Positions 19,601-25,600 are shown, counted from the stretch's first letter. The stretch is 64,000 bases of DNA from Escherichia coli (GCF_030384885.1 NZ_CP128613.1); one strand, 5' to 3'. Numbers: made by a program.

Positions 19601-22600
19601 AACACAGCAACTGGCGGATGATTAACTTGCCGGTTGGCCCGTTGGTGGACGGCAAACCGATTTATACGCTCTACATCGCGCTGTCTATCGATTTTCATCT
19701 TCATTACATTAATGATTTGATGAATAAACTTATTATGACCGCATCGATCATCAGCATCCTGATCGTCTTTATCATGCTGTTGGCGGTACATAAAGGCCAC
19801 GCGCCAATTCGCAGCGTCAGCCGTCAAATCCAGAACATTACCTCGAAAGATCTCGACGTTCGCCTTGACCCGCAGACCGTGCCGATTGAGCTGGAACAGC
19901 TGGTACTGTCGTTCAACCATATGATCGAGCGTATTGAGGATGTCTTTACCCGCCAGTCCAATTTCTCAGCGGATATCGCTCACGAAATTCGTACGCCAAT
20001 TACGAATCTCATTACGCAAACGGAAATCGCCCTCAGCCAGTCGCGCAGCCAGAAGGAGCTGGAAGATGTGCTCTACTCTAATCTCGAAGAGCTGACGCGA
20101 ATGGCGAAAATGGTCAGCGATATGCTGTTTCTCGCTCAGGCCGATAACAACCAGTTAATCCCCGAAAAGAAAATGCTCAACCTGGCGGATGAAGTTGGCA
20201 AAGTGTTCGATTTTTTCGAGGCGTTAGCGGAAGATCGCGGCGTAGCACTACGGTTTGTTGGCGACAAATGTCAGGTTGCGGGCGATCCGCTGATGCTGCG
20301 TCGGGCGCTAAGCAACCTGCTTTCTAACGCTCTGCGTTATACGCCGCCCGGAGAGGCAATTGTAGTGCGCTGCCAGACGGTCGATCACCAGGTGCAAGTT
20401 ACCGTCGAAAACCCCGGTACGCCCATTGCGCCCGAGCATTTACCGCGTTTGTTTGACCGTTTCTACCGCGTTGATCCTTCCCGCCAGCGAAAAGGTGAAG
20501 GTAGCGGCATTGGGCTGGCGATAGTGAAATCGATTGTTGTCGCGCATAAAGGCACGGTTGCAGTAACGTCAGATGCGCGGGGAACAAGGTTTATGATCAA
20601 ACTACCGGAGAAAGGTTAATTAGTTAGTTCAAACTCAAAGAGTGATGTATCGCCTTCTGTTATTATTTATCAATAAAACAGGGAAGACCTTATTGGTCGT
20701 CTGAAATCGACGGTTATTCATTTTCGGATATTTACGAGATATTTAGATATGCAATTTAATCAAATTCGTGTTTCTACCAATTGTAGAGCACAATGCTATT
20801 ACTAAATTTTCATCACTATAAAAGAATCGGCTATAATATAAAGCGCAGTCAGGCATCATTAATCTCTATATTATTCACACAATCTATTTATCAAGTGAAT
20901 TTGATAAATTCCTAATTTAAAATATTCACTATTAAGCCAGCGTCTAACGACGTTAAGATGGCAATGTGCAGATCATGTTATCAGGGTGGGGCGGTAGCGT
21001 ATATTCCTTATACAAACCATCATTCATTTCAATAATGTTTATTGAGTTATTTATTATTGTGAATAAAAAGACATTACAAATATTGGTTTGACTTTGCATA
21101 TCAGGTGTTTTTTTTGTTACTCGATGTAATATACGAGCCTGTCCTTAATAACATCGTGAACCCGTCAGTTGAGTTTGTGATTATTTTGTTGAGTCAACAG
21201 CCCCCTGTTTCTCTGAAGTAAAATCCCGGACAAAATCATCACATAACCATGACACTTTTCTGATATTCCCCGGTAACGCCTGAAGCCTGCCCGCTTACCT
21301 GAAGGCGCAGTCTGCGGGCAGGCACCGGATAAGTGAAGAGACTGACCAGTATGCCGGAGGCCACCGGCTGAAACAGGCCGGAAACACGCAGTATGACTAT
21401 GACGCCGCAGGCCGGATGGTCAGCCGCACCAGGCACCGTGACGGCTACCGCCCGGAAACAGAGCGGTTCCGGTGGGACAGCCGGGACCAGCTGACCGGGT
21501 ATTGCAGCGCACTGGGGGTGCAGTGGGAATACCGCCACGACGCCAGCGGCAGACGGACGGAAAAACGCTGCGACCGGAAGAAAATCCGTTTTACGTACCT
21601 GTGGGACGGCGACAGTATTGCGGAAATGCGGGAATACCGGGATGATAAACTGTACAGCGTACGGCACCTGGTGTTTAACGGCTTTGAGCTGCTGAGTCAG
21701 CAGTTCAGCCGGGAAAGGCAGCCGCATCCGTCCGTGGCCCCGCAGTGGGTGACGCGGACGAGCCATGCGGTAAGCGACCTGACAGGCCGCCCGGTGATGC
21801 TCTTTAACAGTGAAGGTAAAACCGTCTGGCGGCCGGGACAGACCAGCCTGTGGGGGCTGGCACTCAGCCTGCCCGCAGACACCGGCTACCCGGACCCGCG
21901 CGGGGAACTGGACCCGGAAGCCGACCCCGGCCTGCTGTATGCAGGACAGTGGCAGGATGCAGAATCCGGGCTGTGCTATAACCGGTTCCGGTACTACGAG
22001 CCGGAAACCGGGATGTACCTGGTGAGTGACCCCCTGGGGCTGGCCGGGGGGGAGCAGACTTACCGGTATGTGCCTAATCCATGTGGGTATGTTGATCCTT
22101 TGGGATTAGCAACGTGTCCCATAATCAGACAGCGGGTGCTTGCTAACCTCGAAGCCAGTCGGGCAGCAAGAGTTACATCAAATTTTGGTAAGCCTCTGGT
22201 TCAGGGAAATAAAACGATTGGCGATAAAGTAAGGGATATAATTGCCAAAGAGAGGGGAACCACTCTAATTGAACAAAATTATAGAGTGACAGGAGGATTA
22301 AGGCGTATTGACGTTGTTGATGGAGTAACGGGTATTGAATCTAAAGTCGGTCGAACAGGGATAACTGCCCGAGTACGGCAAGAGGTAGCCCGTGATATTA
22401 AGATTTTGAGAAGTGGGCAACTTGATCAAATTGAATGGGTGTTTACAAGAAGTCCAACTACAGGGAAGATTGGGCCAACTAAACCACTTGAAGATCTGTT
22501 AAATAAACATGGTATACCGATTATTTATCGATAAGGAGTGATAGTGTGAAACTCAAACCGATTGGTGATTTTTTAATTAATAGTGGGTTCGTGAAAAATA

Positions 22601-25600
22601 GTGACACTGACTTTTATAAAGTGCATGATAAGTTTGTATACTGTATAAATTTTCAAAAAAAGAGCACGGGTGATATTTTTTTTATAAACACAGGTGTTCA
22701 TCCTATATTCGAAGGTTTTTGCAATGAACTACCAACAAAAGAAATAGATTGCTACATTCGTAATCGTGTGTGTGATGGACTAAGTATATCTTTGCTGAAT
22801 TCTTTTGAAGGTGATGAATTTGTTATCAATGAGATAAAGGATAAAGCGTTTTGTTTTTTTGAATACTTTGATTCATTGAATAAAATATTCGATAGTATTC
22901 GTGTTGTCGATATTGAAGAGAGAAATATTTGCGATGAGCTAAGTAATGTAAGTAGCGTAAGATTAGCTTTGATGTGTATGAACTACCAATATGAGAAAAA
23001 AAATTTGGGACTTGCTTCAGATTTTGCGAACTATGGTCTTGCTATATCTAGAGGCCCGGTACCGAAAAAAGCATTTAAGGATATGATAAAAAAAATAGAG
23101 TGATATCTAATCCGCTGTAATGCCAATTGTCTGTGTACAGAGAAGGTTAACGGCCTGGATGAGACAATCGTCTACACATGGGACGCTGCAGGCCGCCTGG
23201 CAGAAATCATCGCCCCGGAAGGGAAAACGCAGTACGCGTATGACAAATCCGGCAGGCTGACGGGTATCTTCAGCCCGGACGGCATATCACAGCGCACCGG
23301 CTACGACGAACGCGGGCGGGTGAATGTCGCCACGCAGGGCAGACGGGCCATTGAATACCACTACCCAGGGAAAGATCACGTAACGCTGCTTTTTTGTACT
23401 AAACAATTCGAATTTTATGTTTAAAAATTGAGATATTCCTCATTACCTGAAGCTGTTTTTTATTGCTTATACATGATCAAATACTCCTTACATAATTAAG
23501 GAGAACAAAATGGAACTTAAAAAATTGATGGAACATATTTCTATTATCCCCGATTACAGACAAGCCTGGAAAGTGGAACATAAATTATCGGACATTCTAC
23601 TGTTGACTATTTGCGCCGTTATTTCGGGTGCAGAAGTTTGGGAAGATATAGAGGATTTTGGGGAAACACATCCCGATTTTTTGAAGCAATATGGTGATTT
23701 TGAAAATGGTATTCCTGTTCACGATACCATTGCCAGAGTTGTATCCTGTATCAGTCCTGCAAAATTTCACGAGTGCTTTATTAACTGGATGCGTGACTGC
23801 CATTCTTCAGATGATAAAGACGTCATCGCAATTGATGGAAAAACACTCCGGCATTCTTATGACAAGAGTCGCCGCAAGGGAGCGATTCATGTCATTAGTG
23901 CGTTCTCAACAATGCACAGTCTGGTCATCGGACAGATCAGGACGGATGAGAAATCCAATGAAATTACAGCTATCCCAGAACTTCTTAACATGCTGGATAT
24001 TAAAGGAAAAATCATCACAACTGATGCGATGGGTTGCCAGAAAGATATTGCAGAGAAGATACAAAAACAGGGAGGTGATTATTTATTCGCTGTAAAAGGA
24101 AACCAGGGGCAGCTAAATAAAGCCTTTGAGGAAAAATTTCCGCTGAAAGAATTAAATAATCCAGAGCATGACAGTTACGCAATGAGTGAAAAGAGTCACG
24201 GCAGAGAAGAAATCCGTCTTCATATTGTTTGCGATGTCCCTGATGAACTTATTGATTTCACGTTTGAATGGAAAGGTCTGAAGAAATTATGCGTGGCAGT
24301 CTCTTTTCGGTCAATAATAGCAGAACAAAAGAAAGAGCCAGAAATGACGGTCAGATATTATATCAGTTCTGCTGATTTAACCGCAGAGAAGTTCGCCACA
24401 GCAATCCGAAACCACTGGCACGTGGAGAATAAGCTGCACTGGCGTCTGGACGTGGTAATGAATGAAGACGACTGCAAAATAAGAAGAGGAAATGCAGCAG
24501 AATTATTTTCAGGGATACGGCACATCGCTATTAATATTTTGACGAATGATAAGGTATTCAAGGCAGGGTTAAGACGTAAGATGCGAAAAGCAGCCATGGA
24601 CAGAAACTATCTGGCGTCAGTCCTTGCTGGGAGCGGGCTTTAGTGAGTAGGCCACCGGAACCTCCCCGACAGCCTCTCGCAGAACCGTACGTGAAACTCT
24701 CGCTTCATACGGCTCCCGTCAGGCAAACGCGCTTCCTGGTCCTGCTTTCCAGTGGGCAAACAACTCCGGCTTCTCTTTTGACAGCCTTTCCATTAGCTGA
24801 CACGCCTTCGTCTTTCTATACCGCAGGGTTTTATATTTCTTTCTCGCCCACGCAATCAGCGTCAGATTAATATATCTGCATACTTTCTTCATCGCTGATT
24901 TGTGGTATCTCGCGTAATAATTCAGCCACCCCGATATTATCGGATTCAGCCACTTCGCAATATCTTCGAGACTCATCTCCACCCTGCGTCTGATCCACAG
25001 TTTCCTGAGTTTTCCAATCATGCCTTTCTGCGCACGGTTACTCGCCGCCGGGCTGAAACTCGTAAAGAGGTTCCCCCGCCGGTGGTTACGTGCTCTTCGC
25101 GCTCTGAACGTATACCCCAGAAAATCAAACTGCACTGTTTCATGGTTCGCCTGTCGTTCGCTGTCTTTGCAGTAAACTATTTTCGTTTTCTCCGGATGTA
25201 ATTCCAGTCCACATTCCTGAAAACGTTTTGCCAGCTTATTCAGTAATTCCTCTGCCTGTTGTTTACTGCCACAATGAATTAATCCATCATCTGCATAACG
25301 GCACCAGGGAATTTCCGGATAATGTAACGTCAGCCATTTATCAAACACATAGTGCAGAAATAAATTCGCCAGTACCGGGCTGATGACTCCACCCTGTGGC
25401 GTACCTTTATTTCTTTCCTTCAGTGTTCCATCCGGCATCTGCACCGGCGCTGTCAGCCAGCGGCGAATAGACAGTCTTACCCATTTATCCGCACAATGTT
25501 TATCTACTGCCCTGAGTAATAAATCGTGGGGGATATTATCGAATAACCCTTTAATATCAAACTCAAGACACCAGTCGTATTGCCAGCAACGTTTTCTGGT

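Follow-up and report, generated by a model that had tools for sequence, protein, structure and literature searches.

An open reading frame (ORF) at positions 22546 to 23103 of a 64,000-nucleotide (nt) stretch of Escherichia coli DNA (GCF_030384885.1, NZ_CP128613.1; the whole stretch is called the window here) very likely encodes the cognate RhsI immunity protein of the Rhs C-terminal (CT) toxin tip encoded directly upstream (22109 to 22534). This interpretation had been proposed in an earlier reading of the DNA without database searches (the sequence-only reading) and is supported by comparative genomics, the pairing of the two ORFs being conserved across genera and delivery chassis. For this strain, we infer that the ORF is expressed and that its product binds and neutralizes the toxin. 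Neither the toxin family nor the family of the putative immunity protein, DUF4304, has been characterized so far, and DUF4304 is without an assigned function.

An intact AT-rich gene downstream of rhs

The ORF lies on the + strand, with a GTG start codon at 22546, a TGA stop codon at 23101 to 23103, and a product of 185 amino acids (aa). The rhs stop codon (TAA) occupies 22532 to 22534 and is overlapped by a Shine-Dalgarno sequence, AAGGAG (22533 to 22538), which is spaced 7 nt from the GTG. Direct reading of the DNA thereby confirmed the coordinates, the GTG start, the AAGGAG site, the 185-aa length, and the shared strand with rhs given by the sequence-only reading. The distance of 12 nt between the rhs stop codon and the start codon was accurate in that the GTG begins at the 12th base after the stop, but the intervening nucleotides number 11, not 12. 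The description of an AT-rich ORF next to a GC-rich rhs core was borne out by measurement: the GC content of the ORF was 31.4% (26% at third codon positions), compared with 62.8% in the rhs core part and 50.5% in the window as a whole.

The frame of the ORF was open for 188 codons, while the other five frames contained 6 to 31 stop codons, and none of 5000 shuffles of the ORF bases reached 188 open codons (mean, 62; maximum, 143). An identical coding sequence in strain 2013C-4282 is annotated in RefSeq as WP_000769434.1 and named “DUF4304 domain-containing protein.” Both the immunity ORF and the toxin tip are intact in the window and 100% identical to the copies in 2013C-4282. Between two E. 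coli alleles, the immunity gene had a ratio of nonsynonymous to synonymous substitution rates (dN/dS) of 0.29, and the toxin had a ratio of 0.34; both genes are under purifying selection. The ORF is a genuine gene, and its own strong Shine-Dalgarno sequence would allow it to be translated independently of the truncated rhs. A gene on the reverse strand opposite the ORF was also considered and ruled out, the longest open stretch there being 76 codons and each frame containing 6 to 9 stop codons.

A predicted nuclease at the rhs tip

The variable tip of the upstream rhs gene is bounded by the translated motif PCGYVDPLGL (22079 to 22108, + strand), which conforms to the PxxxxDPxGL motif that demarcates Rhs C-terminal tips (PMC3150448). 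The tip itself (22109 to 22534, + strand) consists of 141 aa and a stop codon, has an isoelectric point (pI) of 10.5, and was predicted to be a PD-(D/E)xK nuclease. The predicted nuclease residues are E58 (22271 to 22273), D71 (22310 to 22312), E80 (22337 to 22339), and K82 (22343 to 22345); E58, D71, and E80-S-K82 (an E..D..ExK motif), together with several arginines, are invariant in the toxin family. An AlphaFold model of the tip had a predicted local distance difference test (pLDDT) score of 84, rising above 90 over a core of alpha-beta-beta-beta-alpha-beta order. The second strand carried D71 and the third carried ExK, which is the arrangement by which members of the PD-(D/E)xK superfamily are recognized. 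The closest structural neighbors were AF1548 and NucS, not TseT. The tip is very probably a DNA-targeting PD-(D/E)xK nuclease, with a predicted DNase activity.

Profile searches found that the toxin domain family contains at least 239 proteins. No Pfam match was obtained for the window tip at E values up to 10, for 16 family members at E values up to 1, or for 7 distant members at E values up to 10, and hidden Markov models did not place the tip in Tox-REase families (e.g., Tox-REase-5 and Tox-REase-7). One distant relative of the toxin is labeled “Tox-REase-7 domain-containing” in UniRef; Pfam scans do not reproduce this label, although a remote kinship may exist.

Pairing of toxin and immunity ORFs in E. 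coli

The ORF is found where an RhsI gene is expected, being a small same-strand ORF directly after an rhs tip bounded by PxxxxDPxGL. Of 5426 complete E. coli genomes, 114 carried the toxin tip and the immunity ORF as a contiguous pair; the two never occurred apart, all 114 carriers having both. Most of these copies were orphan modules. In strain A15, the pair ends an intact Rhs protein of 1611 aa with prePAAR, PAAR, and DUF6531 regions and ten RHS repeats, and the gene is preceded by vgrG and a gene for a DcrB-family (Eag-type) chaperone. In A15, the immunity gene begins 11 nt after the rhs stop codon and encodes a protein that shares 87.6% identity with the product of the window ORF. Because the A15 pair terminates an intact Rhs protein encoded behind vgrG and a chaperone gene, the tip appears to be a deployed type VI secretion system (T6SS) effector in at least one strain.

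Pairing in other genera and at deep divergence

A toxin homolog followed by a DUF4304 homolog was found in Pectobacterium versatile, P. carotovorum, Yersinia nurmii, Morganella morganii, Proteus vulgaris, and Providencia stuartii. In these cross-genus pairs, the toxin homologs were 73 to 84% identical and the DUF4304 homologs 33 to 48% identical to the E. coli proteins, with gaps of 1 to 12 nt between the genes. The immunity protein diverges much faster than the toxin core: in the pairs of the window and of comparison loci L004, L006, L007, L009, and L018, identity across genera was 75 to 84% for the toxin core and only 32 to 49% for the immunity protein.

A broad scan of genome contigs with a narrower alignment returned 7 loci. 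Four of the five distant DUF4304 representatives sampled (24 to 30% identity to the ORF product) directly follow the same toxin domain, which was recognized in L020 (E = 8.5e-39), in L019 (partial; E = 1e-27), in L026 (E = 4e-17), and in L027-29 (E = 1e-48). The gene order in L027-29 is vgrG, DUF2169, a PAAR-like gene, a gene for a 346-aa non-Rhs effector ending in the toxin domain, and DUF4304. Adjacency of a DUF4304 gene and the same toxin domain was kept in at least 13 distinct loci. The pairing was found in six genera in total. Co-occurrence and co-variation with the toxin tip, as expected of RhsI, therefore hold independently of the rest of the locus, including on a non-Rhs chassis. Co-occurrence of the pair in other genomes was a check proposed by the sequence-only reading, and it was passed in 114 E. 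coli genomes, in five other enterobacterial genera, and in four of five distant relatives. Association of the ORF with unrelated toxins only, which that reading took as grounds for rejection, was not seen; no DUF4304 homolog was found beside a different recognizable toxin.

Short ORFs resembling SymE_toxin (PF08845) lie on the opposite strand between modules in the Pectobacterium, Yersinia, and Proteus orphan arrays (L003, L005, L006, and L009). None lies beside the window module.

DUF4304 membership and predicted structure

The ORF product, in which no homology to a known protein had been recognized at first, does have known relatives: it passed the Pfam model DUF4304 (PF14137) with 37.5 bits against a gathering threshold of 23.2 (E = 2.7e-9), and the RefSeq name given above also refers to DUF4304. 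The match covers residues 7 to 75 (model positions 2 to 75 of 115), that is, the N-terminal alpha/beta part only, and the conserved C-terminal helical domain falls outside the Pfam model. DUF4304 was the sole Pfam match of the product, with SUKH/SMI1_KNR4, Imm-n, and TriTu families not matched, and NCBIfam gave no match for the product or for the toxin tip. A profile built from relatives of the ORF retrieved 182 cluster representatives among 1.84 billion proteins, many of them about 200 aa long and matched over most of their length.

The AlphaFold (AF2) model of the product was confident (pLDDT, 93; predicted template modeling score, 0.87). Residues 1 to 75 were modeled as an N-terminal helix and a four-stranded sheet, and residues 81 to 184 as a C-terminal bundle of helical hairpins resembling tetratricopeptide repeats (TPRs). 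Profile searches of the PDB with the toxin and DUF4304 families returned chance matches only (E above 1), and a Foldseek search with the model of the product found no solved structure below an E value of 0.2 and nothing solved that resembles the whole protein. The product has a mildly acidic pI of 5.5, and inspection of its sequence revealed neither an obvious hydrophobic stretch at the N terminus nor an obvious signal peptide. As far as can be judged from sequence, these properties suit a cytoplasmic inhibitor of a toxin that acts in the cytoplasm.

A truncated rhs gene and a deletion in this strain

Homology to the rhs core starts abruptly at 21296, in a frame that is open from 21284 and has its first ATG at 21416. 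The 5′-truncated core remnant, the 3′ end of a YD-repeat shell (21296 to 22078, + strand; Pfam RHS_repeat and RHS matches), has 100% identity to the 2013C-4282 orphan rhs and 95.7% identity to that strain's main rhs. The upstream gene had been read as an Rhs toxin; the toxin tip is indeed present, but the gene is not complete, its homology beginning only at 21296.

To the left of this junction lies an AT-rich region retained from between cusS and vgrG (20620 to 21295, + strand; GC content, 32.7%). Positions 20000 to 21297 of the window align at 84% identity to strain EE72d (L002, 2372 to 3671), over the 3′ end of cusS and the cusS-vgrG intergenic region, and the alignment ends about 57 nt short of the vgrG start (L002, 3728). 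At the same site, EE72d, 2013C-4282, and A15 carry vgrG, a DcrB/Eag-type gene, and a full-length rhs gene with its immunity gene, followed by orphan modules. Because the alignments to the cusS-vgrG region and to the rhs core meet at the junction and the intact locus is present elsewhere, the window strain has lost the entire segment from vgrG to midway through an rhs core. The sequence comparison indicates that the cusS-vgrG intergenic region is fused to the rhs core by a deletion in which vgrG, the Eag chaperone gene, and the PAAR-Rhs N terminus were lost. The rhs fragment is without PAAR, prePAAR, and DUF6531, whereas the full-length A15 protein has all three.

In keeping with an rhs orphan, the fragment lacks the N-terminal region and keeps the 3′ core, the DPxGL motif, the CT, and the immunity gene. 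The other mark of an orphan, a position downstream of a full-length rhs/immunity pair, is absent in the window and present in 2013C-4282 and EE72d. Since the fragment directly follows the cusS-vgrG intergenic region and a full-length pair precedes the orphan in both of those strains, the window locus is a deletion derivative of an rhs orphan array. E. coli NCCP12480 and AR_0061 have comparable truncations at the same site, with different toxin/immunity tips.

Observations that weigh against an immunity role

Several observations count against assigning the ORF as a cognate immunity gene. DUF4304 homologs without an adjacent toxin were found in Paenibacillus, in Flavobacterium, in Brenneria, and on metagenome contig L021. 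The homolog in Paenibacillus massiliensis (L016, 5001 to 5576) is solitary among housekeeping genes, as is that in a Flavobacterium sp. (L014, 4998 to 5582), which stands alone and has a stop codon in frame. The toxin domain, in turn, is not tied to DUF4304 alone: toxin homologs from high-GC contigs (L010, 3280 to 4637; L011, 4001 to 5229), which are 43 to 55% identical and have signal or transmembrane N termini instead of Rhs, are followed by a conserved protein of 172 to 206 aa that is unrelated to DUF4304. The identity matrices of toxin and immunity proteins were correlated (Mantel r = 0.74, P = 2e-4, 10 pairs), which speaks for co-inheritance of the pair, but shared phylogeny contributes to this correlation and could account for it alone. 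A literature search found no paper mentioning DUF4304 or PF14137, and a preprint surveying Rhs in Pectobacterium does not discuss the toxin/DUF4304 pair in its main text. In the window strain itself, the delivery genes are deleted, and a promoter and terminator scan returned only 9-of-12 consensus matches that were not clearly above the shuffled expectation.

In polymorphic toxin systems, immunity genes that persist without toxins and more than one immunity family per toxin fold are both usual. The Brenneria homolog (Brenneria sp. 4F2; L015, 400 to 6500) belongs to a same-strand array of small genes that also encodes DUF4303, a YxiF-like protein, and an immunity protein of the TriTu family; the array looks like an orphan immunity island, no toxin domain having been detected in it. 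Because the Brenneria copy sits beside a TriTu-family immunity gene, the toxin-less copies of DUF4304 fit an immunity role. The solitary copies in other phyla suggest cross-phylum transfer of the immunity gene alone, to judge from their sequences. The Paenibacillus and Flavobacterium copies are 40 to 45% identical to the E. coli protein, and the Morganella and Proteus copies are less similar (33%). The protein of 172 to 206 aa probably represents a second family of immunity proteins directed at this toxin fold; that it might be a diverged DUF4304 was ruled out by hhalign (probability, 0.1%). Locus L010 has a primase/helix-turn-helix, mobile-element-like context.

Alternative explanations

The ORF could be an immunity gene by descent that was left over when the rhs island decayed, is now silent and without function, and has simply not yet acquired disabling mutations. 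Much about the locus would fit such a history, namely, the deletion of vgrG, the Eag chaperone gene, and the Rhs N terminus, the presence of an rhs scrap, of ISAs1 copies, and of a group II intron on the flanks of the module, the location of the annotated start codon of the 2013C-4282 orphan rhs in the part deleted here, and the lack of a convincing promoter in the scan. Decay is also evident in related loci, where P. polonicum has only a 48-codon toxin remnant left, P. carotovorum has a frameshifted immunity gene, and the Flavobacterium copy is interrupted by its stop codon. The sequence of the module itself argues the other way, since the ORF and the toxin tip are intact and identical to those of 2013C-4282, the E. 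coli alleles have a dN/dS of about 0.3, and the strong Shine-Dalgarno sequence is preserved. The native region upstream of the vgrG operon is retained before the fragment, which makes read-through transcription plausible, and analogous contact-dependent inhibition (CDI) and Rhs loci have been shown to encode orphan immunity proteins that are functional (PMC3150448). A relic without function is accordingly considered improbable.

An accessory or chaperone role, in which the TPR-like C-terminal domain would bind the tip and stabilize it or load it for secretion, is much less probable still. The TPR-like structural matches are to generic helical hairpins at 8 to 14% identity. Genes for T6SS adaptors lie upstream and co-vary with the effector N terminus, and this slot is filled by DcrB/Eag in A15 and by DUF2169 in L027; the ORF lies downstream and, regardless of the chassis, co-varies with the toxin domain at the C terminus. 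By position and co-variation, it therefore does not belong with the T6SS chaperones and adaptors (Eag/DUF1795-DcrB, DUF4123, and DUF2169). DUF4304 also occurs alone in the toxin-less array, beside the TriTu-family immunity gene.

That the ORF is spurious or an unrelated hitchhiker, as its low GC content unlike the surroundings and the lack of a described function for its family might suggest, is the least credible explanation and is effectively refuted by the comparative data, given the absence of any shuffle of equal length, the passing of the Pfam threshold, the 182 profile clusters, the pLDDT of 93, and the finding of at least 13 distinct loci in which it adjoins the same toxin domain.

Proposed role of the immunity gene

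Under the preferred interpretation of the ORF as the cognate RhsI gene, the T6SS in full loci would deliver the toxin at the tip of a prePAAR/PAAR Rhs effector that is loaded onto VgrG with an Eag (DcrB-like) chaperone, and the DUF4304 protein would shield the producer and its kin from the delivered toxin. The DUF4304 protein most likely forms a 1:1 complex with the nuclease domain in which the active site or the DNA-binding surface of the toxin is blocked. The toxin would not be exportable in the window strain, because vgrG, the chaperone gene, and the Rhs N terminus are deleted, and with the delivery machinery gone the ORF could therefore act only defensively. It may protect against attackers that carry this toxin (such as A15-like E. 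coli), and it may neutralize any toxin fragment that the retained reading frame yields inside the cell. In a bolder and less likely variant, the deletion has put the toxin fragment behind the vgrG promoter region, and the pair acts as an intracellular addiction module.

Surroundings of the module in the window

The module is closed on its right side by a scrap of rhs core (23112 to 23366, + strand), a noncoding remnant and recombination scar that is 88 to 91% identical to segments inside the rhs core of L001 and L002; its counterpart in 2013C-4282 is annotated as a partial pseudogene. The right boundary of the rhs island is a gene for an ISAs1-family (H-repeat) transposase (23510 to 24643, + strand; Pfam DDE_Tnp_1_assoc and DDE_Tnp_1; also in the RefSeq annotation). 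A group II intron (24642 to 26459, - strand) lies between this complete transposase gene and a partial second copy (26413 to 27300, + strand), and the two ISAs1 copies are 98% identical over 755 nt. The intron contains the Rfam matches RF00029 (24642 to 24717) and RF01999 (26342 to 26459) and a 505-aa ltrA reverse transcriptase ORF (24719 to 26236). Among complete genomes, the ISAs1-intron-ISAs1 arrangement was found only in strain 2013C-4282.

Beyond the island, cusCFBA (- strand) and cusRS (+ strand) occupy 12209 to 20619, and nfrB and nfrA occupy 27558 to 32754, both in the gene order of annotated genomes. Farther to the left (5219 to 6379, - strand), the sok antitoxin RNA (RF01794) was matched three times in tandem (82 to 87 bits) at a spacing of about 500 nt, which suggests a triplicated hok/sok locus.

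Implications for DUF4304 and strain competition

DUF4304 as a whole is likely to be a dedicated immunity family for an unnamed PD-(D/E)xK polymorphic-toxin domain, which occurs in Rhs effectors, VgrG/PAAR-linked effectors, and small secreted proteins of high-GC bacteria and probably also in CdiA. If so, DUF4304 would gain its first functional assignment, the toxin and immunity families would form a newly defined pair, and the solitary copies in Firmicutes and Bacteroidota would be acquired defenses. The cassette is otherwise an ordinary toxin/antidote module and leaves the understanding of such systems unchanged. Rhs toxin/immunity cassettes shape which E. coli strains coexist in the gut, and matching small-ORF antidotes to their toxins helps to predict the outcome of strain competition. 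The analysis offers a testable function for DUF4304 and draws attention to a nuclease-like toxin domain not covered by current Pfam and NCBIfam models. A strain that lost the weapon and kept the shield would be in line with a defensive reason for the retention of orphan immunity genes.

Comparison with known systems

Orphan immunity gene islands are acquired interbacterial defense clusters. The toxin-less array of Brenneria and the solitary copies of Paenibacillus and Flavobacterium resemble them; the window immunity gene differs in that its toxin tip is still attached, and no mobile-island recombinase context was seen. The closest functional analogs of the pair are TseT-TsiT and the CdiA-CT/CdiI pair of E. 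coli EC869. TseT of Pseudomonas aeruginosa belongs to Tox-REase-5 (TseT-TsiT; PDB 7dym and 9oz0), whereas the window toxin matches no Tox-REase Pfam model, and DUF4304 matched neither the TsiT chain nor any other solved structure. EC869 CdiA-CT/CdiI (PDB 4g6u) is delivered by a type V (CDI) system rather than by T6SS/Rhs, has an unrelated immunity fold, and shares no detectable sequence similarity with the window pair.

Experimental work has shown small ORFs downstream of rhs-CTs, including those of orphan modules, to act as specific immunity genes (PMC3150448). The orphan modules RhsIo1 and RhsIo2 of Dickeya dadantii 3937 (Poole et al. 2011, PMC3150448) differ from the window module in the sequence families of toxin and immunity protein and in that the main rhs and vgrG upstream are deleted in the window; neutralization was tested experimentally in Dickeya, whereas the window pair is known from sequence and predicted structure. 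The organization of the locus is otherwise alike: a 5′-truncated rhs with a 3′ core, a PxxxxDPxGL motif, a variable tip, and a closely spaced, small same-strand ORF, with the same tip on a full-length Rhs protein of another strain and with linkage of the locus to vgrG.

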